Shown here: positions 38,896-56,212 of the stretch, one piece after another | How the letters are laid out: each line of letters opens with the position of its first letter | Numbering within the stretch: the stretch's first letter is position 1 | IMG/VR virus record: IMGVR_UViG_3300043357_000064 | Span: 1 to 64,000 of that record | Direction: 5' to 3' (one strand) | Source of the DNA: a virus | DNA: 64,000 nt | Translations under genes and position numbers: made by a program | Notes under the pieces: generated by a model | Seen by the model: only the letters and a program-made list of their open reading frames with translations | Databases searched by the model: none | Told to the model about the DNA's origin: nothing

Positions 38896-40733
38896 CAGTA
38901 CCGCCCTCCCGCCGCGATCTTCGCGGCTGCATCGCTGTGCCCGAGACGCTTGAAGCTCTCGGCCATCGCGGTTTCGAATGCGTTCTTGTCGGCCTCGCTG
39001 GCACCGAACTCCGTGCTCGTGCCAGACCCGAGTCCGGACACCGAACCGGCACCAGCGGCCTGGCGGGCTTCGGCGAGGACGGTTTCCATCTCGGTGATCG
39101 CCGTCGCCGTCGCGGCCCGGAACGCCGTCTCGTCGAGGACGTTCGCCTCCGTCAGCGGCACCGATGCCGTGACCTGGGCCATGACGCGCGACTGTGCGAC
39201 CGGCGTGGTGACCTGGGATTCGGCCAGCAGGGCGGTGACGATCGGGCGTGCGGCTTCGACGGCGCGGAATCGGGCGAGTTCGGTTTCGGCGACGAGCCGC
39301 TGCCGGTTGGATTCGTCGAGCGCAAGTTCGGCCGCTCGCCGTCCGTTCTGTGCTTCGGTGACGGCTGTCGACACTGCCGCGTCGCTCGTCCCCGCCGCGT
39401 CCGGCGTGGTGCCGGTGTTCTGAGGTCCGGTCATCCCGGTCCCCTCCTCTACGGTTTGGGTTGAAACGGTCGGCGGGGTGCCGTCCGCTACATCTGTGGT
39501 GGTGGCCGCCCGGCCGGCGGATTCGCCGATGCCGAAGTCCTTGGCCGACGCGGCGATTCGGTCCTTGACCTTCTTCAGGTCCGCGGCCGAGTACAGGGCG
39601 GCGTTGTCGGACTGGCCGAGGTATGAGAGCGCAGCCTTGACGTGGGCAGCTGAATCGATGGGATACCTGGCTTTTTTGTCGTCCTGATATCCGGGATCGG
39701 CGTACTTCACATCGCCGTACGGCTTCTTGGCGTCGCCGCCGTCCGCCTCGGCGACGATCGCCGCATCGGCCGCTGCGTCCTCCGGGTCATCCGGCGGCGC
39801 TGGGCTGTAGACCGTCCGGGCAATGACCTCGGTCCGGGCGCCGGTCAGGGTTACGGAAAGGTCGGCGTCGACCGTGTACGACTGCTGCCACGTGTCGGTG
39901 TCGGTGGTGTCGCGCATGTCGAACCACACGACCTGCTGGTCGGGGTCGTAGTCGCGGACCCACAGGCAGCCGTTGACGGCTTGGTCGCCGTAGGCGTCAC
40001 TGACGGCGTCGTTCAACGCCCGGAACATGTCGGCGGTCGCGGCCTCGTGGATTCGGCGGAACCGCGACAGCGGCATTCCGAGCGCCTCGGAGATGGCAGG
40101 GTTCAGCCGTGCGGCCTCGGCCAGCGACATGATCTTTCCGCCCGCTCCGGCGCGGGTGACGAAGTCGACGGAGGAGCCGTACGTCAGGGACTCGATGATC
40201 GGGCCGGTGCGTCCGGCGATAGTGCCGGTCTCCGCCGTGCCGCCGCCGCGAATGGACAGGCCGATCGCGCTGCCGATGGACTCGATCAGCGGCTGGGCGT
40301 GCGGGAAGACTTCGATGGTGGCGTAGAGTCCGTCACCTTCGTAGGCGGGCGTGGTGACCACTGTCCCGGCGAGGTCGCGGACGTCGCGCTCGGGGCGCTC
40401 GGCTTCCTCTGTGTCGGTCGGGTGATTTAGGTACATTTGGGTACCTGCGGGCCATACCTTCGGCCCGTCGCGTTCAATGACCTTCTTCGGCCAGTACCCG
40501 CTCGTGCCCCATCGATCGCCCTCGATTAGTCGAGCCTTGTAGCGTCGGCCACCCGACGACGTCATGCCGCCAGTGCTCGCCTCGGAGATCGTGATCCGAG
40601 TCGCCGTCGACGGTCCGGTGGTGACATCGACGTCTTCGCGCTCGGCGACCGCCGTGGCGGACTCGCGCAGCAGTACAGTCCTGGCGCGACTGTTGAGCCG
40701 GTCCGGCGCCCGAAGGTGTGGTCGGTTGGACAT
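38895..40733 (-). CDS. Capsid maturation protease/scaffolding fusion candidate
   Basis: 612 aa. Central YGDVKYADPGYQDDKKARYPIDSAAHVKAALSY motif common in actinophage scaffold proteins. Ala-rich helical C-terminus. Confidence 0.5.
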   Translation of the reverse strand: MSNRPHLRAPDRLNSRARTVLLRESATAVAEREDVDVTTGPSTATRITISEASTGGMTSSGGRRYKARLIEGDRWGTSGYWPKKVIERDGPKVWPAGTQMYLNHPTDTEEAERPERDVRDLAGTVVTTPAYEGDGLYATIEVFPHAQPLIESIGSAIGLSIRGGGTAETGTIAGRTGPIIESLTYGSSVDFVTRAGAGGKIMSLAEAARLNPAISEALGMPLSRFRRIHEAATADMFRALNDAVSDAYGDQAVNGCLWVRDYDPDQQVVWFDMRDTTDTDTWQQSYTVDADLSVTLTGARTEVIARTVYSPAPPDDPEDAAADAAIVAEADGGDAKKPYGDVKYADPGYQDDKKARYPIDSAAHVKAALSYLGQSDNAALYSAADLKKVKDRIAASAKDFGIGESAGRAATTTDVADGTPPTVSTQTVEEGTGMTGPQNTGTTPDAAGTSDAAVSTAVTEAQNGRRAAELALDESNRQRLVAETELARFRAVEAARPIVTALLAESQVTTPVAQSRVMAQVTASVPLTEANVLDETAFRAATATAITEMETVLAEARQAAGAGSVSGLGSGTSTEFGASEADKNAFETAMAESFKRLGHSDAAAKIAAGGRY

Positions 40734-40763
40734 CCTGACCTCCTTCTTTTGGGCATGCGAAAA

Positions 40764-40787
40764 GCCCCGACCGGATGTGGTCGGGGC
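40764..40787 (-). terminator. Rho-independent terminator after the (original) HNH gene
   Basis: Minus strand gccccgacc-acatcc-ggtcggggc followed by TTTTCG. Confidence 0.65.
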
Positions 40788-40808
40788 TTCGTGAGGTGGG
40801 CTGTGAAG

Positions 40809-40864
40809 TTAGAAGAGCAGCGGTTGGTAGGTCGGCGCGGCGCGGATTCCCTTGCGGCTATTAC
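40809..40864 (-). pseudogene. Displaced 3' end of the HNH endonuclease gene
   Basis: Reads (C)NSRKGIRAAPTYQPLLF* and joins in frame to 42547 to restore ...NIVPACRSCNSRKG. Confidence 0.7.
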
Positions 40865-41000
40865 TTAACGGCTCCCCACGGATAAATCCGGGGGATTCCC
40901 AGCTCAGACCGCACCCGATCCACCGCCCCGGAGGGAGGCAATCGAATGTCTGATGTCGTCAGCACTGGCACGGTTACGCTCAGCCGTGGCGAGGATCGTC
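40865..41000 (-). ncRNA. Predicted omega/reRNA scaffold of TnpB (extent approximate)
   Basis: By analogy with characterised TnpB systems: overlaps the tnpB 3' end and RE. Not directly demonstrable from sequence. Confidence 0.35.
40874..40894 (-). repeat. RE subterminal hairpin
   Basis: ccccacgga-taaa-tccggggg (plus strand), 9 nt from the element end. Confidence 0.65.
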
Positions 41001-42046
41001 CTCGCGGCGTTCAGGTCTCGACCGGCGGTATACCCGCAGTCGTCGCACCTGAAAGTCCGTACACCCAACCCGAGACGCGACTTGGTTCTCGCCGCACACT
41101 CGGAGCAGGTCATCGTGGTGTAGGCGGGCGGAACCAGCACCACCGTTCGGCCCGCCCGCGTGCCACGTTCGATCAATTCCCGTTTCGCTGCACCGATCGC
41201 CGCGTCGGCAGCCTTGCGTGCCATGGTGGATTTGGCAAGGAACTTCGGCTTGAAGTCCTCGATAGCGATCAACTCATGGTTGTCGACGATGCCTTTGGCC
41301 CACTGTCGCGATGCGTGAGTGTTCTGGCGCGCGGCTTTCTTGTGCAGCTTCGCGGCCGTGCGCTTCGCGTCCCGGTAGCCGTTCGACTGTGCTTGACCTC
41401 TCGGCCTACGTCGGCGGGCCATCTTCCGCTGCGCCTTGGCAAGTTCGGCGGCACACCGCTTCCGATAGCCAAGGTGCGGCAGGTCGTAGGCCGGGTCGGT
41501 GGTCGTGGCGGTCGTGGTGACGCCCCAGTCGATACCGATGGAACCATCGGTATCGGGCGCTGTCGTCGATTCGCGGCGGACCACGAACGACGCGTACCAG
41601 TCGCCGAGCGAGTCCTGGTAGATACGAACACTGGTCGGGATCGACGGCAGCTCGCGCGACCATACGACTGGAATGCTCAGACCGCCCGCGAGGCGCAGCC
41701 GGCCGTCACGCACAGCGAAACCCCGAACCGTGTATTCAAGACTCGGCAGCGTCTTCTTGCGCGCCTTGATGGCGGGCCGTCCGCGACCTTTGACCTTGAA
41801 CGAGTGGTTCAGCGCGAGCGCATAGTTGCGCAGCGTCTGCTGTTGGGCGACCTGCGAGCCGTCGCGCAGCCATGTGAATTGGGCTCGGGCCGCAGTGAGG
41901 AGTTTCGACAGGCTGCACAGGGTGGGCTTGTTGCCGATTTTCTGCTGGTGGACGGCCTCGTTCCAGAGGAACCGGCAGCGTCCCCACTCGGCGACCAGCG
42001 CGGCAACCGCCGTCGCGCCTGGGCGCAGACGGTAGGTGTACCGCAT
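40904..42046 (-). CDS. tnpB: TnpB RNA-guided endonuclease (IS200/IS605 OrfB)
   Basis: MRYTYRLRPG start. RuvC motifs IGIDWGV, IAIEDFK, GRDLNAARTI. Zn finger CSECAA...CDDCGY. Confidence 0.9.
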   Translation of the reverse strand: MRYTYRLRPGATAVAALVAEWGRCRFLWNEAVHQQKIGNKPTLCSLSKLLTAARAQFTWLRDGSQVAQQQTLRNYALALNHSFKVKGRGRPAIKARKKTLPSLEYTVRGFAVRDGRLRLAGGLSIPVVWSRELPSIPTSVRIYQDSLGDWYASFVVRRESTTAPDTDGSIGIDWGVTTTATTTDPAYDLPHLGYRKRCAAELAKAQRKMARRRRPRGQAQSNGYRDAKRTAAKLHKKAARQNTHASRQWAKGIVDNHELIAIEDFKPKFLAKSTMARKAADAAIGAAKRELIERGTRAGRTVVLVPPAYTTMTCSECAARTKSRLGLGVRTFRCDDCGYTAGRDLNAARTILATAERNRASADDIRHSIASLRGGGSGAV

Positions 42047-42096
42047 GGTTTCTTCCACATCGTCAACTATACAGCACTGCGCCATATACTGTTGCC

Positions 42097-42492
42097 ATGG
42101 ACGAGGTCAGATCGAACAACAACGTCGTATACCGCTGCAGCTATCACGTCGTGTGGTGCCCCAAATACAGGCGGAAGGTCATCACGGGAGTGGTTGACGA
42201 AAGACTCAAGGAGATCATCCGCGCGGTCTGCGCCGAACGTGACGCGCCCATCGTGGCGATCGAGACGATGCCCGACCACGTACATCTGCTCGTGGTGTGC
42301 GATCCCCAATTCGGCATCCACCGTCTCGTCAAACAGATCAAGGGCCGCTCGTCACGACTGTTGCGGGATGAGTTTCCGCACCTTAAATCCCGGCTTCCAA
42401 CGCTATGGACCAACTCATATTTCGTCGCCACAACGGGTGGCGCAACATTGGAGGTCATCAAACGCTATGTGGAAAACCAGCGAAACGCTTAG
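42097..42492 (+). CDS. tnpA: IS200/IS605 Y1 (HUH) transposase TnpA
   Basis: 131 aa. YHVVWCPKYRRKV, MPDHVHLLV (HUH), SYFVATTGG (catalytic Tyr region). Confidence 0.9.
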   Translation: MDEVRSNNNVVYRCSYHVVWCPKYRRKVITGVVDERLKEIIRAVCAERDAPIVAIETMPDHVHLLVVCDPQFGIHRLVKQIKGRSSRLLRDEFPHLKSRLPTLWTNSYFVATTGGATLEVIKRYVENQRNA

Positions 42493-43639
42493 AGCACACC
42501 CTTACCTCCCCACGGCTAAAGCCGGGGGTTTCTCGGGAGTCTCTCGATGATCTGCAAGCTGGGACAATGTTGGAAGCGGTATGCGGTCCGCCTCTGAACA
42601 GTGGAATCACGTGGTCCATAGTCAGCGGTCGGCGGCGCTTGCAGTACGCGCAGAGGAAGCGGTATGCGGCTTTGATCTCGTACCACTGACGCGCGGTCAG
42701 ATCGTTTACCGGTGATCTTGCTTTGCGGAACCGACGCGTTTGACCATGAAGATGCATGCAACTGCGACACACGCGGCGCCCTGGACCGCCGAGTGTGTTC
42801 TTTTTGTCGTAAGGGTGCCCCGATGGGCATGAAGTCTTCCTCGCGTTCAACGCGAACGGAGTTGTGCCAGCAAGCGCAATTTCTCGGCGGCTTGCAATCT
42901 TGAAGTGTGATTCGAAGTTCACGCACAAGGGGCGTCCGCAGAGCCGAATCGGATGAAAACCGGCCGTGACAGGTTCTACGAAATGGTTGTAGGCCCACAG
43001 TCCGGCATGGTTCGAACCCGAACCGACGCGCATCACGGGGTAACCATCAGCGCCGGTTAAACCCGTCCAAAGCCAGCAACGACCGATGTCGGGCTGTGTA
43101 GCCGAGGTCGGACCGTCTTTGTCGACATACGACCAGAAACGGGCTTCATCGTTGCCGACAATCCGGCTTGTGGCTAGCGGATCGCCGTGGCGTCGCCAGC
43201 GGCGGTAGTGGATGTAGCACCAGCCATGGCCAGCGTTTCCACGCTTCTCGCATTCCGGAGCGATGCACTCACCAGCGGCCGGGCGGCGACCTTTCAATGG
43301 ATCACCGCTTCGATGCCAGCGGCTCCAGTGGAGCGAGCAGTAACCATGACCAACGGCAGGGTTCTGGCAATCGTTGATGCTACAGATTGAGCGTTCCTTC
43401 TTGACCAGCTCCAGCAGCGGATCGCCCGTCTTCTTCCACCGGCTGTAGTGCAGGCTGCACCAGCCACGTGCTAGGTGTCGACCGCCGCAGCCAACTATCG
43501 AGCAGATCCCAGGCTTGGCGCTTCGACTCGGCGCAAGTGGGTCGCCATAGAGGCGCCAGCGATTGTAGTGCGCGCCACACCAACCCCGAGATAGCAGCTT
43601 GGTCGTACAACCGTCGATTGAGCAGATACGCTCTGACAT
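42458..43639 (-). CDS. HNH endonuclease with four N-terminal Cys/His repeat modules; native C-terminus replaced by 29 IS-derived codons
   Basis: Repeats C-x2-C-x(8-10)-G-x-C-x2-H-(Y/W)-x-R-W-x4-GDP, four times. HNH core TMDHVIPLFRGGPHTASNIVPACRS, then reading enters the IS at 42546. Confidence 0.75.
   Translation of the reverse strand: MSERICSIDGCTTKLLSRGWCGAHYNRWRLYGDPLAPSRSAKPGICSIVGCGGRHLARGWCSLHYSRWKKTGDPLLELVKKERSICSINDCQNPAVGHGYCSLHWSRWHRSGDPLKGRRPAAGECIAPECEKRGNAGHGWCYIHYRRWRRHGDPLATSRIVGNDEARFWSYVDKDGPTSATQPDIGRCWLWTGLTGADGYPVMRVGSGSNHAGLWAYNHFVEPVTAGFHPIRLCGRPLCVNFESHFKIASRREIALAGTTPFALNARKTSCPSGHPYDKKNTLGGPGRRVCRSCMHLHGQTRRFRKARSPVNDLTARQWYEIKAAYRFLCAYCKRRRPLTMDHVIPLFRGGPHTASNIVPACRSSRDSRETPGFSRGEVRVCSKRFAGFPHSV
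42508..42528 (-). repeat. LE subterminal hairpin
   Basis: ccccacggc-taaa-gccggggg (plus strand), 18 nt from the element end. Confidence 0.65.
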
Positions 43640-43727
43640 GTCGGTCCTTCGAGAGAGGATTGGCCATGCCTCGGGGCCGTTGACGCGGTCGCCGAGGTCT
43701 ATTCATTATCGCAGATGAGAGCCGGTT

Positions 43728-44807
43728 TCACCCATTCGCCTTGGCTTTCGCCACGTTACGGAGATCCGCCAGTGAGCGCGGCGCGTACGACTGGCGCCAG
43801 TTGGGATTCGGTCGCAGTTGCGGAATGTCATCCCACGAGATCGCCGAGGACTTGAGCAGGTCGAGTCGGCCAGCGCCAAGGATCTGCCTCTGCGTCTCGG
43901 CCGGTTGTTCGGCGAACCAAGCGCGGGCGTCGGGGATTGTGGATGCCGGTTCGGGGATATCGATGCCGAGATCGGCCCACGATCTGGTGAGCGGCATGCG
44001 CGTACAGCGACCTTGTTGATGGTCATCCGGTCCACTGGCCGACAGCGGGAACTCTCGGCCATTCATTGCCAGGCATGAGGAACATGTCCGAGGACTCAAA
44101 GTGCAGAGCCACAGCCAGCCCCGAAGGACATCGGCATTCGATTGATGCGCATACATTGAGGTTTCGCGATAGGCCCCAATTATCTCTGTGCGAGCCACGT
44201 TGACCGCCCGATCGAGACCGCCATTGAACCCGTTCTCCAGCCCGGTCAGCATCTGCGCACCCGCTTGCCGCGGCCCGGTCCCAAGCACCACGCCGCGAAC
44301 CAACTCCCGGTTCATGGCGTCGACCGCGTCAGCCGACAGCGGCTTCAGCGTCGAGGTGATCTGCTGCGACGTGCGGGCGACGATCACGTCCAGCGCCGAC
44401 GGCGGGATGTTGGCCGCGTACCGGAGTGCCGCCTCTTCGCGCATCGCCGCCGGTAGTTGTGAGGCGATCAGGAACGGCTCGGCAGCGACCGTCGCCTTCA
44501 CGGCCAGCCCGGCGGCGTCGGTGATAGTCACGCCGGCGCGGGTGCCGAGGTTGACGAGCGCCGACTGTGCGTTGAGCAGGGCCTGCGTCAGGCGCGGAAT
44601 ACGGCGGAGTTCGTATGCAGACGGCCAGCGGCCGAGTTGCCCGCCGAGAGTCAGCGCGGCGAGGACTGCCGCCTCCATGTCGGCAGACAGCAGATCCCAC
44701 GCTTTGACCCATGCCGCGGCCAGTTTCCGTGTGGCGTTGTCGGCCTCACGACCTACAGCGGCACGCAACTGCCGGCCGAGTAGGAGTGTGCCGCTGCGGA
44801 TGGCCAC
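43728..44807 (-). CDS. Head morphogenesis protein (SPP1 gp7 / Mu F family)
   Basis: 359 aa. NVARTEIIGAYRE...CTLSPRTCSSCLAMNGREF. Confidence 0.75.
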   Translation of the reverse strand: MAIRSGTLLLGRQLRAAVGREADNATRKLAAAWVKAWDLLSADMEAAVLAALTLGGQLGRWPSAYELRRIPRLTQALLNAQSALVNLGTRAGVTITDAAGLAVKATVAAEPFLIASQLPAAMREEAALRYAANIPPSALDVIVARTSQQITSTLKPLSADAVDAMNRELVRGVVLGTGPRQAGAQMLTGLENGFNGGLDRAVNVARTEIIGAYRETSMYAHQSNADVLRGWLWLCTLSPRTCSSCLAMNGREFPLSASGPDDHQQGRCTRMPLTRSWADLGIDIPEPASTIPDARAWFAEQPAETQRQILGAGRLDLLKSSAISWDDIPQLRPNPNWRQSYAPRSLADLRNVAKAKANG

Positions 44808-46536: not shown

Positions 46537-48993
46537 TCAGTAGCTCGGGCCGATGTGGAAGTCGGCGTCGTCGTCATCCTCGAAGATCTCGTCATCAAAG
46601 AGCAGCGGATTCAGCAGCAGCCGGTTCAGGGCCTGCGACGACGTATCCACCTGGTCGTCGTTCGAACCGTTCGGGAAGCTGGCGTGCTCCTCGATGAAGT
46701 CGCCGATCCACGGGGCAATCTCGGGCGCCGGCAGGAACACGTTCCCGGCCTCGACGAACGGCGAGACTGCGCGCGCACGGGCAACCTTGGAACCTTCCGG
46801 CTCGACGCCGATGAGCCCGGCGACGATACGCCGCAACTGGTTCATCACGGCGGTGCCGTTGGCCTTGTCCTCGACGTACTTGGCGATCGCCTGCGGCCAG
46901 CGTGCGGCCAGCGTGCGAACCTCGGTGCAGGTGTTGACGAAGGAGAACCGGCCGCGGACCTGATCGAGGAGGAAAGCTTCGACGCCGCGACGTCCCCAGA
47001 CCTGACCGACAACCCAGTCCGACGAGTCCAGGTCCTTGAACGCCATGTCCCAGGAGATGCAGATCTCGTCGAAGCCGACCGCCCAGCGAGTGCCGTCGGG
47101 TCGTTCGATCCACTGCGGCGACTCGTAGCTCTGCCACCATTCGCGGTTGAAGATGTTGCCGCCGGCAGGCGATGGGCGCCCCTGGTAGAGGGCGTTCCAC
47201 GAGCGGGAGCCGACTTCGCGTTTCTTCTCGTCCCAGTCGGCCGGGGTCCGGTCGCGGGTTGAGACCAGGTATTCGCCGGGCTCGCGGCCGAGTGGATCAG
47301 TCTCGCCCTTCGCCGGGTCGTGGTCGGCTTGGGCCGGGATGTTGATGACGCGCCAGTCGATGCCGTCGTTGCGCTTCTGGAGCCAGCCGGACAGGTCATC
47401 GTCGCGCCATCTGGTCTGAATTATGACGACTGCGACGCCGGGGCCCAGGCGTGGGATCGCGACCTCGGTCCAGAAGTCCTCGACCGTTTCCTGCCACGCC
47501 TCCGAGTCGGCCTGTTCGCCGTCCTTGTACGGGTCGTCGATGATCAGAAGATCGACGGGGCGTGACGTGAGCGAGCCGCGGAGACCGACACAGTAGACGC
47601 TGCCCGCATGGCCGAGGAGTTCCCACTCGTGGGCAGCTGCGCTCGACGGGTTGATGGTGAGGTTGAGCGTCTTGCCGTGGTCATTGATGTCGTCGCGGAT
47701 CGCCCGTCCCCAACGGCGGGCGATGCTGTGGGCGTAGGAGACGATCGCGATCCGAAGATCCGGGTTACGCCTCAACATCCACAGCGGGAACCGCCGGGAC
47801 GTGCGCTGGCTGTTGTGCGTTGGCAGCAGTGAGCGGCCAGCCAGAAACGTGTGATCCAGACTGTCGACTTCGATGCAGCGGGTCGGCACGCTCTCCGTCT
47901 GCTCGGCCCATGTGTAGCGGACGCGGGCCACCGAAGAGTCGGTGCACTTCGCGGCCTTTCGAGGAAGCCAAGCCGCATTGGCCATGAAGAATCGAACGCG
48001 ATATTTCGGTCCGCAATCCTTGCCAGCGATGGTTGCGCGGCCTTCGCGGGTGGATGCCTTGGCGCCGAGCGAGAACACCAACTCGCGGACATCGTCCGCC
48101 AGGCGCTTATTCGTCGCGCAGAACTCGACCTGCCCCCGCGGATCCACGTATCCGTCGGTGTCGACAAGGCCCTGCAGCAACGCGAGACGCTGTGCGCGAG
48201 AGGCACGGTGGTAGATGGCGGGGACGTGCTTGTTTCCCCACACGCCGAGTTCGACCAGCGCCTTGCGGATCGGACTGCACGCAGTCGTTCCCGCGGGCGC
48301 AAGGCTCCATGCGTATTCGGCGCGGCCCTTGCGGCATGGAACGCCAGCCGAGCGGATGCGCTCGACAATCTCAATGTCAGCCGATGTGATCGCTGCGGCG
48401 TTGGTGTGGCCGTCGCCGAGCCATGCGCCAAGGACGTACGGGTCCAGCGGCAGTACGGCATCAGGCAGGTTGAGCCCTGAGGATCCAGTGATCTGGGCAT
48501 TCTTGCTGCGAGGCTTCGCGAGCAGTTCGGAGGTGACGAGACGCTCGCTGCTGGTGCGATCCAGCCGCGCAGGCCAATCGTGGCGAGCGTCGGCAACAAT
48601 CGCCTCACCGTCGCCTGTTCGCACGATGTAGCAGGGTCGGTTAGTCCATGTCGGCGACGTCCACGTGACTCGGCACGGTTTTCCGTGACGATCGAAGACC
48701 TCGTCGCCGACGGATAGAGCACCCATGGTCGTCCAGCCATCGGGCGTCGCGATCGGGGTATCGAGCGCGAGCGCCTTTCCCTCCTGTGGTGGCAGGGCAA
48801 TCATCAGGCGCTTACATCGGCCTTCTGCGACGTCTACAAGCGCGGCGTCGATGAGGTCGAGCGCCGCGGTCTGCTTCGTCGTCGGGTCGAGGAACTTCGC
48901 GAGCGCGCCCGGCGTCGGGAATTCGGTGTCAGCCGGGCGCGGCATGAACGAGGCGACGCAGGCTTGCCACGCCATCTGTTCGAGAGTCGGCAC
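46537..48993 (-). CDS. terL: Terminase large subunit, interrupted by an intein
   Basis: GTG at 48993 with GGGAGG RBS. The track ORF extends further upstream as an Arg/Ser/Pro shadow. The Walker A PPQEGK|S is split by the intein. C-terminal nuclease-like region. Confidence 0.85.
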   Translation of the reverse strand: MPTLEQMAWQACVASFMPRPADTEFPTPGALAKFLDPTTKQTAALDLIDAALVDVAEGRCKRLMIALPPQEGKALALDTPIATPDGWTTMGALSVGDEVFDRHGKPCRVTWTSPTWTNRPCYIVRTGDGEAIVADARHDWPARLDRTSSERLVTSELLAKPRSKNAQITGSSGLNLPDAVLPLDPYVLGAWLGDGHTNAAAITSADIEIVERIRSAGVPCRKGRAEYAWSLAPAGTTACSPIRKALVELGVWGNKHVPAIYHRASRAQRLALLQGLVDTDGYVDPRGQVEFCATNKRLADDVRELVFSLGAKASTREGRATIAGKDCGPKYRVRFFMANAAWLPRKAAKCTDSSVARVRYTWAEQTESVPTRCIEVDSLDHTFLAGRSLLPTHNSQRTSRRFPLWMLRRNPDLRIAIVSYAHSIARRWGRAIRDDINDHGKTLNLTINPSSAAAHEWELLGHAGSVYCVGLRGSLTSRPVDLLIIDDPYKDGEQADSEAWQETVEDFWTEVAIPRLGPGVAVVIIQTRWRDDDLSGWLQKRNDGIDWRVINIPAQADHDPAKGETDPLGREPGEYLVSTRDRTPADWDEKKREVGSRSWNALYQGRPSPAGGNIFNREWWQSYESPQWIERPDGTRWAVGFDEICISWDMAFKDLDSSDWVVGQVWGRRGVEAFLLDQVRGRFSFVNTCTEVRTLAARWPQAIAKYVEDKANGTAVMNQLRRIVAGLIGVEPEGSKVARARAVSPFVEAGNVFLPAPEIAPWIGDFIEEHASFPNGSNDDQVDTSSQALNRLLLNPLLFDDEIFEDDDDADFHIGPSY
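47812..48774 (-). mobile_element. Intein (321 aa) with LAGLIDADG homing-endonuclease domain; class-3 signature
   Basis: Starts ALALDTPI (Ala1) and ends THN followed by Ser+1. Block B ARHDW, block F RCIEVD...HTFLAG, i.e. the W/C/T triplet. LGAWLGDGH and LLQGLVDTDGYV motifs. Confidence 0.75.
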
Positions 48994-49009
48994 GGCGCCT
49001 CCCGAAGGG

Positions 49010-49045
49010 TGCAGCCCGCAGCGGGGAGGTGTGCTGCGGGCTGCA
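49010..49045 (-). promoter_or_regulatory. 13-bp perfect-stem hairpin just upstream of the TerL RBS
   Basis: tgcagcccgcagc-ggggaggtgt-gctgcgggctgca. Confidence 0.5.
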
Positions 49046-49057
49046 GTCGATCGGGTG

Positions 49058-49411
49058 TTACGCGGTCGGTGCGGCGGGTGCCGGGTCCTCGGCGACCGCT
49101 TCGGCGTCGGCGCCGTTGATGGCGGTGTCGAGCGCGTCGATCTGCGCCTGGACGTCAGCCGGGATTCCGCCAGCGGCGTCGATCGTGGCCTGGAGTCGCG
49201 CGAAGGCGTCGGTGACATCGCCCTTGTACTTGTCGAAGTCCGCGGCGAGCGTGGTGACGTCGGTCATGATCGTTCCCTCTTTCGTGATGACGGTGCGCAA
49301 GTCGCGCTGGATGTCGGCCACGGCTGCGGCCATGTGTTGCAGGCTGTGCTGGATTTCGTCGAGCTGGCGCCCGTCGTGTCCAGGGCAGCGCGGGAAGATG
49401 CAGGCGAGCAT
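49058..49411 (-). CDS. Small coiled-coil protein immediately upstream of TerL
   Basis: 117 aa with high GC3 throughout. An internal ATG at 49267 has a strong RBS (GAAAGAGGGA). Confidence 0.45.
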   Translation of the reverse strand: MLACIFPRCPGHDGRQLDEIQHSLQHMAAAVADIQRDLRTVITKEGTIMTDVTTLAADFDKYKGDVTDAFARLQATIDAAGGIPADVQAQIDALDTAINGADAEAVAEDPAPAAPTA

Positions 49412-49984: not shown

Positions 49985-50176
49985 CTAGCTTCGTTCGATC
50001 CGCCTGTAGAGCGTTGCCTTCGCGACGCCGACTGCCTTCGCCGCAGAGGGCACGCTATGGCCGTTGGCGATGAGCGCCAGTGCGGCCTCCAACTTGTCCG
50101 GCGTCAGCGCGATCGGCGCAGATGATCGCGGACCTAGCTTCCGCTTTCTCCGTGCTGCAGTCTCGGACCATCGCAC
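49985..50176 (-). CDS. Resolvase-type HTH (HTH_7-like) ORF overlapping the endonuclease VII gene end
   Basis: RRKRKLGPRSSAPIALTPDKLEAALALIANGHSVPSAAKAVGVAKATLYRRIE resembles the linker + HTH of small serine recombinases. Confidence 0.45.
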   Translation of the reverse strand: MRWSETAARRKRKLGPRSSAPIALTPDKLEAALALIANGHSVPSAAKAVGVAKATLYRRIERS

Positions 50177-50567
50177 CTAGCCCGATCATCCAGCGCGATA
50201 TCTCGTCCCACTGTTCGGCGCTCACGTCGTCTGGCTTCAGCGGCATCCCCTCATGGGCAACTCGCGCCAGCATCCGCTCCAACTCCCAATGGCGGCCCTT
50301 CAACTTCCCGGGGTTGGGAATTGCCCCCGGGTGGTGGCTGCCATATATGACGGTAAGACCGAGCGACAGCGCCGGTGGGTTCGCCCGGTAGGCAACGATC
50401 CACGGGAAGTCGTGCTTGCCCTCGTCGTTATTGCACCGAGTGCATAGCAGTCCGCGGACAAGTCCCGTCTCATGGTCGTGGTCAACGACGGGGATCCGTT
50501 CTCGGGTGCAGATGGCGCACTTGCCAGCCTGAAGGTCGCGCAACTTCTGTAGCGGGTCTCTCATCAT
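50055..50567 (-). CDS. Endonuclease VII-type (T4 gp49-like HNH-fold) nuclease
   Basis: GKCAICTRERIPVVDHDHETGLVRGLLCTRCNNDEG. ATGA overlap with the recombinase stop. The last roughly 20 codons have poor GC3. Confidence 0.7.
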   Translation of the reverse strand: MMRDPLQKLRDLQAGKCAICTRERIPVVDHDHETGLVRGLLCTRCNNDEGKHDFPWIVAYRANPPALSLGLTVIYGSHHPGAIPNPGKLKGRHWELERMLARVAHEGMPLKPDDVSAEQWDEISRWMIGLGAMVRDCSTEKAEARSAIICADRADAGQVGGRTGAHRQRP

Positions 50568-51124
50568 TCCGACTTGCCCCCGATGTGTCGGTAGATGCTT
50601 GCCCGGCTAACGCCGATGGTCATCGAGATGACGTCCAGCGTGTACTTCTTGGATTCGTACATCTCTCGTGCGATAGCAATCTTCGCGGGTGTCATTTTCA
50701 CCGGGCGACCGCCGACGCGACCGCGAGCGCGGGCGGCTTCGAGCCCGTCGTGCGTTCTCTCCGAGAGCAGTTCGCGTTCAAACTCAGCCATCCCGGCGAG
50801 GATGACGAAGAACAGACGTCCGCCTGGAGTCGACGTATCGATGCCCTGATCGAGTACTCGAAGATCCACGTTGCGGTCGCGGAAGTCGTCGGCCAACTCG
50901 CACAGGTTGCGCACCGAGCGGCCGAGACGGTCGAGCCGCGTGATCACCAACTCGTCGCCTTCGCGGAGGTAGTCGAGCGCCTTGTCGAGTTCGGGTCGTC
51001 TCGCAAGCTTGCCGGATGCGTGGTCGGTAAAGATCCTTGCGCACCCACTCGCGGTCAGTGCATCGTGTTGGGCTTCCGGATGTTGGTCGCGGGTCGAAAC
51101 CCTCGCGTAGCCAATCTTCGTCAT
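50564..51124 (-). CDS. Small serine recombinase (resolvase/invertase family)
   Basis: 186 aa. IGYARVSTRDQ catalytic Ser motif, VITRLDRLGRS, C-terminal HTH ISMTIGVSRASIYRHI. Confidence 0.9.
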   Translation of the reverse strand: MTKIGYARVSTRDQHPEAQHDALTASGCARIFTDHASGKLARRPELDKALDYLREGDELVITRLDRLGRSVRNLCELADDFRDRNVDLRVLDQGIDTSTPGGRLFFVILAGMAEFERELLSERTHDGLEAARARGRVGGRPVKMTPAKIAIAREMYESKKYTLDVISMTIGVSRASIYRHIGGKSE

Positions 51125-54776: not shown

Positions 54777-54998
54777 GTGAAGCTGTCGGAATGGGCAAGA
54801 CGGAATGGTGTGCACTACCAGACCGCCTGGCAGTGGGCACGCGACGGGAAGATGCCGGTGCCTATCACCAAGACCGAGACCGGGCGGTACTTGGTTCTCG
54901 TGCCAGAGCCAAGCGTTGACAAAACGACGGTTGGATATTGCGTCTGTGGACGCCGGATCGAGGTCTCCGATTTCGTGACGGCGCCAGTGGTCCAATGA
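54777..54998 (+). pseudogene. tnpA: IS607-type TnpA reduced to its N-terminal MerR-like HTH
   Basis: MKLSEWARRNGVHYQTAWQWARDGKMPVP matches the IS607 TnpA N-terminus. Only 73 aa; the serine-recombinase catalytic domain is absent. ATGA overlap with tnpB. Confidence 0.6.
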
Positions 54999-56212
54999 GC
55001 CGCGTCAAGCAAGGATTCCGGGTCGAGTTGCGGCCAACTGTTGATCAGCGAGGTCGGCTCGGCCAGCATGCCGGACTTTCGCGAGCTGTCGAGAACTTTT
55101 GCCTTCAGCGGGTGAAAGACGCACTCGATCAGCGCGACGCTGAGCGCACCTACGGCGTACCCGCCGAGGCGCTGACGACGGTGCCGTGGTCGGCGCCCGC
55201 AATGGAGCGAGCCTGGCGCGTTGCCCACCCGGCCCGGTATCCGTGGTTTATGGCGGCCGACATGTCCTCGCGGATTCCCAAAGAGGCGTGCCGAGTCAGA
55301 GCTGCTGGCTTGAAGAACTGGGCCGAGTCCCGTAGCGGCAAACGCAAGGGCCGCAGAGTCGGTTTCCCGGCATGGCGGAAGCGCAAAGATGGTTCTCGCT
55401 TCAGCTATGACGGCCACCAGGCGCATCCGGATGGACCTCGCGTAGTGCACCTTCCGAAGATCGGCAAGGTCCACACGCTCGAAGACATGTCCTGGCTGCT
55501 CGAACGCATTAGCGATGGCCGTGCGCGGGTCATTGGTACAACCATCAAAGAGCGGGCCGGACGCTGGTGGGTGTCGTTCCAACTCGACATCGACCGCACC
55601 GATGTTAACGCGCGTCACGCCGTGACGCCTGATCGGCCAGCGTGCGGTATTGATCTCGGCGTGAAGACGTTCGCGGTCGTATCCGACGACAACGGCGGCA
55701 TCACCGAGATCAACGCGCCGCGTGCACTGAAGGCGGCGCAGCGCAAGCTCCGCAAGGCAAACAAGGCGCTGGCCCGCACGCGGCGGGGATCGGCGAACCG
55801 GGCGAATGCCGTCCGAGTCGTCGCCCAGGTTCACCTGACCGTTGCGAACCGTCGCAACGACTTCCTGCACAAGACGACCACGATGCTCGCGAGAACCAAG
55901 CGGGCAATCGCGGTCGAAGATCTGAACGTCGCTGGCATGGTCAAGAACCGGCGGCTCGCACGCGCCATCTCCGATGCGGGATTCGGCGAGTTCATCCGCC
56001 AACTGGAATACAAGGCGGCCTGGTACGGATCGAAGGTGTGGGCGGCGGACCGCTGGTACCCGAGCAGTAAAACGTGCTCGTCCTGCGGAGCGGTCCACTC
56101 CGGGCTGACGTTGTCCGATCGGATCTGGCTGTGCGCCTGTGGCGTAGAGCACGACCGGGACATCAACGCGGCCCGGAACCTGCTCGCACAGATGACTCTC
56201 GCAACGACCTAG
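54995..56212 (+). CDS. tnpB: TnpB RNA-guided endonuclease
   Basis: MSRVKQGFRVELRPT start. CGIDLGV, IAVEDLNV, DRDINAARNL. Zn finger CSSCGA...CACGVEH. Confidence 0.9.
   Translation: MSRVKQGFRVELRPTVDQRGRLGQHAGLSRAVENFCLQRVKDALDQRDAERTYGVPAEALTTVPWSAPAMERAWRVAHPARYPWFMAADMSSRIPKEACRVRAAGLKNWAESRSGKRKGRRVGFPAWRKRKDGSRFSYDGHQAHPDGPRVVHLPKIGKVHTLEDMSWLLERISDGRARVIGTTIKERAGRWWVSFQLDIDRTDVNARHAVTPDRPACGIDLGVKTFAVVSDDNGGITEINAPRALKAAQRKLRKANKALARTRRGSANRANAVRVVAQVHLTVANRRNDFLHKTTTMLARTKRAIAVEDLNVAGMVKNRRLARAISDAGFGEFIRQLEYKAAWYGSKVWAADRWYPSSKTCSSCGAVHSGLTLSDRIWLCACGVEHDRDINAARNLLAQMTLATT

Follow-up and report, generated by a model that had tools for sequence, protein, structure and literature searches.

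A 64,000-nucleotide stretch of viral DNA (IMG/VR record IMGVR_UViG_3300043357_000064, positions 1 to 64,000; hereafter the window) carries a complete insertion sequence (IS) of the IS200/IS605 family inside a phage gene for an HNH endonuclease. The element is 1682 bp long, spans positions 40865 to 42546 and has the minus strand of the window as its top strand; both of its boundaries lie where the similarity to approximately 80 relatives stops. Very probably, an IS605-type element inserted 3′ of a TCAT tetranucleotide in the second CxxC pair of the HNH gene, and the gene that it struck is likely to be dispensable. The locus is a neat yet unexceptional example of a selfish element that resides in another: the family is well known, and the place is of a known kind.

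The insertion can be followed to the base. Read on the minus strand, the left flank terminates in ...GCTTGCAGATCAT at position 42547, where the HNH reading frame that starts at position 43639 ends with ...CCAGCTTGCAGATCAT. The insert, read from 42546 to 40865, opens with CGAGAGACTCCC... (CGAGAGACTCCCGAGAAA) and closes with ...GGGGAGCCGTTAA, and the right flank opens at 40864 with GTAATAGCCGCAAGGG, in a longer reading GTAATAGCCGCAAGGGAATCCGC.... There is no target duplication, and no base was lost. The junction cannot be shifted by a single base, because the first IS base is C where the first base of the right flank is G, and the last base of the left flank is T where the last IS base is A. Joining position 42547 to position 40864 yields an in-frame open reading frame (ORF) of 382 amino acids with the C-terminus PACRSCNSRKGIRAAPTYQPLLF, followed by the stop codon.

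The HNH gene is thus present in two pieces. The 5′ part (42547 to 43639, minus strand) comprises codons 1 to 364 and the first base of the Cys365 codon. Its product starts with four Cys/His repeats at the N-terminus, which are followed by a middle domain and by the HNH motif as far as ...PACRS. The 3′ remnant (40809 to 40864, minus strand) is 56 nt long and contains the last two bases of the Cys365 codon, followed by NSRKGIRAAPTYQPLLF and a stop codon. In its present state the gene is a chimeric ORF (42458 to 43639, minus strand) of 393 amino acids, made up of the 364 HNH codons, the split codon and 28 IS codons. Its IS-derived tail (42458 to 42546, minus strand; 29 codons with the split codon included) overlaps the 3′ end of the transposase gene tnpA on the opposite strand, and has no counterpart in any homologue.

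Profile searches distinguished the standing from the restored protein. The Pfam HNH score rose from 32.6 bits (profile positions 1–39 of 47) in the standing ORF to 46.8 bits (positions 1–45) in the restored one, and the HNH_5 score rose from 26.4 bits, which is below the cut-off, to 42.1 bits. The full HNH motif with its second CxxC pair appears only after the flanks are joined, the standing gene being devoid of the near-invariant residues Cys365, Asn366 and Lys369. Homologous proteins end as the restored protein does: P0043 with ...ACRSCNSRKGARAAPAYQPLLF, and P0002 (382 amino acids, 71% identical) with ...ACRTCNSRKNNRAAPTYQPLLF. Past the ACRS tetrapeptide only the protein of the window departs from its homologues, and both P0002 and P0003 are colinear with the 5′ part.

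The contig that encodes P0002 (L081) is a syntenic orthologue of the locus. It has the same gene order (MuF–HNH–protease), with 70% identity in the MuF-like and 71% in the HNH protein, and the downstream hairpin, the ribosome-binding site (RBS) and the start codon of the protease gene match those in the window. The restored window DNA and this uninterrupted gene can be aligned through the junction with no gap. That the 3′ remnant resembles an HNH terminus by chance was considered, and is ruled out by the alignment of homologues together with this gap-free DNA alignment. L081 has ACCTGC in place of the TCATGT of the window, and therefore does not contain the TCAT target.

A preliminary description of this DNA, made from its letters only, had placed the insert at 40865–42546, counted 29 IS-derived codons in the standing ORF and proposed that the insert splits the last zinc motif of the HNH protein, so that excision would restore ACRSCNSRKG. 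On recheck the coordinates and the sequences were all correct, as was the codon count; the split and its predicted repair were borne out by the in-frame 382-residue join and the C-termini of the homologues, and the uninterrupted orthologue L081 was colinear with the joined flanks.

The element encodes two proteins in divergent orientation. The tnpA gene (42097 to 42492, plus strand) specifies a Y1/HUH single-strand DNA transposase of 131 amino acids, which matches Pfam Y1_Tnp (E = 3e-45) and the NCBIfam model transpos_IS200 (155 bits, cut-off 55). It aligns end to end with the TnpA of IS608 (2a6m; E = 3e-51), with the HUH motif (H61, H63) and the catalytic Tyr124 conserved. The tnpB gene (40904 to 42046, minus strand) codes for a member of the RNA-guided RuvC nuclease family; the longest ORF extends from 40904 to 42085, and the protein counted from Met14 has 380 amino acids, as in the public gene call. 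It contains the Pfam domain OrfB_IS605 and a Cas12f1-like TNB domain, scores 220 bits with the NCBIfam model guided_TnpB (cut-off 100) and aligns with the TnpB of ISDra2 (8bf8/8exa; E = 2e-21). The catalytic residues D173, E263 and D344 are conserved, and both zinc-finger CxxC pairs (C314/C317 and C334/C337) align to the ISDra2 protein. Such genes are known from other sequenced phages: among 50,697 phage records, 198 contain TnpB genes and 115 contain Y1 transposase genes.

As no second identical copy of the element turned up in the collection searched, its ends were defined from relatives with TnpB proteins 68–80% identical to that of the window. The set consisted of 80 loci (L001–L080), one genome per species, mostly from Micromonospora, Actinoplanes, Nocardia, Rhodococcus and Corynebacterium. 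Instead of terminal inverted repeats, the element has subterminal imperfect palindromes at both ends and on the same strand: the left-end hairpin CCCCCGGCTTTAGCCGTGGGG at 42508–42528, 18 nt from the left end, and the right-end hairpin CCCCCGGATTTATCCGTGGGG at 40874–40894, 9 nt from the right end. The two are near-identical, and each folds on the minus strand as an 8-bp stem with a bulged T. The motif that they share has only these two matches in the 64 kb, against 0.06 expected from shuffled sequences, and none of 100 shuffles had two or more. The spacing is conserved in the relatives (18–19 nt on the left, mostly 8–10 nt on the right), and the sequences outside both ends are unrelated between loci.

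The left end (LE; 42487 to 42546, minus strand) comprises an 18-nt spacer ending in GAAA (guide-like bases), the hairpin and a partly paired outer helix. Folded as single-stranded DNA it has an energy of −12 kcal/mol (z = −2.26), and in the relatives the hairpin is preserved by compensatory changes. The outer helix (…CTCCC/GGGTG… in the window, CCGCCC/GGGCGG in L004) also covaries among relatives (L003, L004, L016 and others). Situated just past the stop codon of tnpA on the opposite strand, it may serve as a tnpA terminator as well. The right end (RE; 40865 to 40894, minus strand) consists of the hairpin and the sequence AGCCGTTAA, with the final TTAA at 40865–40868; its single-strand fold has an energy of −8.7 kcal/mol (z = −2.23). 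The 79 related right ends all close in TAA soon after the hairpin, in the form TTAA except for five with CTAA, and the preceding base is usually G.

Directly 5′ of LE lies the TCAT tetranucleotide (42547 to 42550, minus strand), the presumptive left cleavage site of TnpA and the presumptive transposon-associated motif (TAM) of TnpB. When the left ends of 29 relatives were anchored on the hairpin, TCAT was found at a distance of 16–21 nt in 25 and TCAC in two (background probability 0.033). The last base of the target and the base 5′ of the hairpin foot were T and A in 24 cases, C and G in two and T and G in one, so that there are only two informative changes, the other positions being invariant. 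The G in place of A in both TCAC elements hints at guide–target pairing of the IS608 type. A preference of the relatives for HNH genes was also considered, and was rejected: none of the 79 right flanks resembles GTAAY....

An omega-RNA-like structured region (40865 to 41037, minus strand) covers the 3′ end of tnpB and RE, and contains nine helices, one of which is the RE hairpin. It was derived from an alignment (A2) of the last 240 nt of 70 sequences, the window element and 69 relatives, for which RNAalifold predicted a multi-helix structure across the 3′ end of tnpB. Once the RE hairpin was included, pairing extended to 95% of the alignment cells, as opposed to 31–48% with slid partners. Changes on both sides were seen in 25 of the 38 pairs, and the observed values were reached by none of 500 shuffles. 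G-U pairs are tolerated on the sense strand of tnpB, which fits an RNA, or the top DNA strand, of that orientation.

TnpB proteins use a right-end element RNA (reRNA) with a guide derived from the flank, and their TAM is the target motif of the transposon (PMC8612924, PMC13565253). By analogy with this mechanism the right flank GTAATAGCCGCAAGGGAATC (40845 to 40864, minus strand) is the would-be guide; preceded by TCAT, it specifies the HNH site in its empty form. The omega-RNA guide is accordingly expected to be GTAATAGCCGCAAGGG, with TCAT as the TAM. The guide sequence matches the window only once, at the occupied junction. There it is preceded by TTAA instead of TCAT, and for this reason the resident copy would be spared.

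These results agree with the architecture proposed in the preliminary description. The divergent tnpA (Y1/HUH) and tnpB genes are there, with intact catalytic residues in both; proteins, ends and relatives support the assignment to IS200/IS605 with the tnpB strand as top strand. The IS608-type geometry, with hairpins 18 and 9 nt from the ends, recurs in the relatives. TCAT as the target is backed by TCAT or TCAC in front of 27 of 29 related left ends, and the GTTAA terminus by the 79 related right ends. The predicted omega RNA gained strong covariation over the 3′ end of tnpB and RE.

The following course of events is suggested. The element very probably inserted by single-strand 'peel and paste' transposition, landing directly 3′ of the TCAT that arises where, in the second CxxC pair, a Ser codon is followed by a Cys codon (TCA TGT). 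As expected from the biology of IS608 and ISDra2, TnpA would bind both hairpins and cleave after TCAT and after TTAA; seamless excision would then restore ...ACRSCNSRKG... with the junction CAGATCAT joined to GTAATAGC. Transcripts of tnpB would be processed to an omega RNA with the 3′ guide GTAATAGCCGCAAGGG.... TnpB carrying this RNA would be able to cut any empty site composed of TCAT and GTAATAGCC..., be it the donor joint that excision leaves behind or the intact allele of another genome resident in the same cell. Repair of the cut from an IS-bearing copy would reinstate the element.

Several observations weigh against this interpretation or parts of it. The proteins identical to TnpA, TnpB and the chimeric HNH product were, in the collection searched, confined to this contig, which leaves no second copy for comparison. 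An exact search of viral contigs with the 24-mer of the empty site returned no match, hence no empty-site allele of the same phage. (A degenerate version of the search in metagenomes gave 17 matches, all in distant HNH genes whose S-C-N codons happen to read TCATGTAAY; as no allele of this phage was among them, they were discarded.) The fold energies calculated for the ends and the RNA from the single sequence are modestly better than those of shuffled sequences (z = −1.4 to −2.3). The region 40000–43800 had no Rfam match at E ≤ 1, so no curated family covers the predicted omega RNA. TCAT is a presumptive TAM on the basis of insertion-site conservation, not of cleavage. Finally, the closest syntenic orthologue, L081, keeps its HNH gene intact at 71% identity, and the gene may thus be of value to that lineage.

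A more ambitious interpretation, which we consider possible but doubtful, sees in the IS an RNA-guided hyperparasite that exploits a protein-guided homing gene, TnpB converting intact HNH alleles when two phages co-infect a cell or a phage meets a prophage. The guide derived from the flank corresponds to the catalytic CxxC-N motif in the HNH protein. If true, the element would be a gene drive inside a phage population, built on an older selfish element, and intact HNH alleles with TCATGTAATAGCC... would be cut.

At the opposite extreme the element could be a dead fossil, an old insertion that is no longer excised and has no working TnpB–omega RNA complex, the split HNH gene being a fixed pseudogene. 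Only a single copy is known and the outer helix of LE is imperfect in the window, as a decayed element would have it. Both ORFs are, however, full length by comparison with the family profiles and retain all catalytic residues, and the hairpins, the spacers, TCAT and TTAA all fit the family consensus. Moreover, the 56-nt HNH remnant has kept its reading frame, and its residues agree one by one with those of the homologues, which argues for a recent insertion. We regard the fossil as unlikely.

The consequence of the insertion for the phage depends on what the HNH protein does. The genes of the head module are arranged in the order TerL (large terminase subunit), portal, MuF-like protein, HNH, protease/scaffold, decoration protein, capsid, ... 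tape measure. The HNH gene stands between the genes for the MuF-like minor head protein and the protease, and is separated from TerL by portal and MuF. TripleJ and LuckyBarnes, two syntenic phages, have no HNH gene at that position, the protease gene coming straight after MuF; Microcystis phage MinS1 has at the same spot a 186-amino acid HNH protein approximately 40% identical to the N-terminal part. The HNH gene failed a filter based on GC content by codon position that the neighbouring genes passed. The sporadic occurrence of a multi-domain HNH gene between conserved genes suggests a dispensable free-standing homing endonuclease gene, and this is what the gene looks like from its sequence and surroundings. 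Since it appears to be dispensable, the insertion most likely just inactivates it.

The preliminary description had suggested instead that the HNH protein works together with terminase in cos cleavage, in which case the insertion may cripple packaging unless the altered C-terminus is tolerated. On this reading the phage would be defective. The position of the gene inside the head/packaging module (TerL, portal, MuF, HNH, protease, capsid) would suit such a role, as would the intact gene in L081, the closest syntenic relative. The terminase-associated packaging nucleases of the HK97 gp74 type are small, adjacent to terminase and conserved with it. Packaging HNH proteins such as HK97 gp74 have roughly 100–130 amino acids. 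The HNH gene of the window differs in being removed from the terminase genes and in coding for 382 amino acids in several domains; TripleJ and LuckyBarnes do without it between MuF and protease; it departs from its neighbours in codon-position GC; and an endonuclease VII-like gene is located at 50055–50567 (minus strand), approximately 0.8 kb upstream of the terminase gene. The packaging role was thus not supported and seems very unlikely to us, and a packaging defect is not expected.

That tnpB has been domesticated by the phage, for instance as a guide-RNA-directed repressor or as a nuclease directed against competitors, and has given up its service to the transposon, is still less credible. 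The phage does have two different tnpB genes, and the one described here is co-oriented with the late operon. On the other hand its RuvC triad is intact, so the protein is not of the nuclease-dead TldR type, an intact tnpA and both transposon ends are still in place, and the guide region is a plain insertion flank. That the IS was misjoined into an automated assembly of the public sequencing run SRR35183420, the HNH gene being really intact, hardly merits consideration: the insertion is base-precise at a family-typical TCAT with nothing duplicated or lost, both junctions lie in unique sequence, and the IS is internal to an 88.9-kb contig rather than at its end.

The element can be set against known systems. 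In IS608 of Helicobacter pylori the cleavage sites are 19 nt from the left hairpin on its 5′ side and 10 nt from the right hairpin on its 3′ side; the guide tetranucleotide is situated 5′ of the foot of the hairpin, and excision is seamless (PMC3201880). The present element resembles IS608 in the full-length alignment of TnpA, the bulged-T hairpins on one strand and the insertion 3′ of a tetranucleotide without duplication, with distances of 18 and 9 nt in place of 19 and 10. It differs in the target (TCAT instead of TTAC), in the right end (TTAA instead of TCAA), in the divergent arrangement of tnpA and tnpB, which is that of IS605 whereas in IS608 the genes are co-oriented and overlap, and in the host, a high-GC phage of actinobacterial type. 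With ISDra2 of Deinococcus radiodurans it has in common the D/E/D triad and zinc finger of TnpB, and the structured RNA over the 3′ end of tnpB and RE followed by a guide derived from the flank. The presumptive TAM is TCAT here and TTGAT in ISDra2, and the omega RNA sequences are unrelated.

The actinobacterial relatives have the hairpins of LE and RE in common with the window element, and likewise its TCAT target, its ...GTTAA terminus and its RNA structure. They differ from it in being at most 80% identical and in being all chromosomal, at unrelated sites, with none in an HNH gene; many lack tnpA. Among sequenced phages the closest TnpB (66.7% identity) is found in phages of Propionibacterium freudenreichii (Anatole gp50, E1, B3, E6), where the same RE hairpin and ...CCGTTAA end occur. 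This element consists of tnpB only, is located among early genes and not in an HNH gene, and had neither tnpA nor a recognizable LE hairpin in the 120 nt read upstream. In Anatole (L106, 1450–1470 and 2672–2690) the 8 nt that follow the right end (TTAA, then CTGCGGCC) recur after TCAT upstream of tnpB (TTCAT, then CTGCGGCC). Such a TAM with a partial guide match at the expected place of the left end may be due to chance, or may be the trace of a lost left end.

A megablast search of the locus against the 50,697 phage records revealed no related phage; the sole match was a 45-bp segment in the LE hairpin region, in Gordonia phage Powerball. Powerball (MN234218, 25279–25335; L086, 2500–2556) has an isolated LE-type structure, in which an 11-bp outer helix (GGAGACCGCCC/GGGCGGTCTCC) surrounds the CCCCCGGCTTTAGCCGTGGGG hairpin. 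It is situated in the 70-bp gap between two convergent genes, 27 and hicB, with no tnpA, tnpB or upstream TCAT. This copy may be what is left of a transposon, or a bidirectional terminator put to new use.

In intronless homing, a free-standing endonuclease gene spreads through repair after its product has cut an allele without the gene. Free-standing homing endonuclease genes are characterized by sporadic presence between conserved genes (PMC13565253). The HNH gene of the window, which codes for a multi-domain protein, looks like them in its sporadic occurrence between two conserved head genes; unlike them, it is disrupted. Residues 6–160 of the HNH protein (approximately 43160–43624, minus strand) consist of four tandem repeats of about 40 amino acids with the pattern C-x3-G/D-C...G-W/Y-C-x2-H-Y/W-x-R-W...G-D-P. 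The same repeats occur in many homologues with other nuclease domains (HNH, HNH_3, GIY-YIG, endonuclease VII), and they look like a repeated zinc-binding module for DNA recognition. Between the HNH stop codon and the RBS of the protease gene there is a hairpin (GCCCCGACC-n6-GGTCGGGGC) followed by TTTTC (40759–40787, minus strand). Its stem is kept in L081 (approximately 1790–1820), with a different loop. From its appearance it may act as a terminator or attenuator within the head operon, and it was not reported by the terminator scan because its T-run is too short for the rule applied.

The value of the locus is that all sequence requirements of an IS200/IS605 element with TnpB, i.e. target/TAM, LE, RE, omega RNA and guide, can be seen at one place and checked against approximately 80 relatives. 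It provides a concrete TAM candidate (TCAT) and an omega-RNA scaffold for an actinobacterial TnpB lineage. The existing knowledge of IS200/IS605 and TnpB systems is unchanged by this case.

Other mobile elements were noted in the same phage. The TerL ORF (46537–49218, minus strand) codes for 893 amino acids, compared with approximately 500 in TripleJ and MinS1. Its PHROG terminase matches are split (amino acids 121–369 and 470–870), and a Pfam LAGLIDADG_3 match covers amino acids 343–393 (approximately 48040–48192). Amino acids 305–394 also gave weak NCBIfam matches to models of two large proteins, a replicative DNA helicase and a ribonucleotide reductase. Probably, TerL harbours an intein that includes a homing endonuclease.

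A second, unrelated TnpB element is located at 54777–56212 (plus strand) and probably continues to about 56355, on the strand opposite to that of its neighbours. Its tnpB (54995–56212, 405 amino acids) scores 325 bits with the NCBIfam model IS607_TnpB, and the D/E/D triad and a zinc finger are visible by eye. The 73-amino acid ORF that precedes it (54777–54998) matches the IS607 transposase model in its N-terminal 60 residues only, and looks like a truncated tnpA of the serine-recombinase type. Selfish elements would thus be nested within one phage head module, an IS in a homing-type HNH gene being accompanied by the probable intein and the IS607 element.

The segment 1–15500 is a block of plus-strand ORFs (among them ORFs of 462, 323 and 799 amino acids), in which Pfam and PHROG matches were restricted to a NUDIX hydrolase and a helix-turn-helix protein; the block may consist of early genes of the phage or of host DNA. 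Signs of a prophage were sought: there were no tRNA genes in the window, no integrase among the ORFs scanned and no host flank. The only recombinase-like gene found in the window, which may act in integration or inversion or belong to a further mobile element, is next to the endonuclease VII-like gene upstream of terminase, at 50564–51124 (minus strand), and encodes a serine recombinase of the invertase/resolvase type with 186 amino acids (PHROG, E = 1.5e-64).

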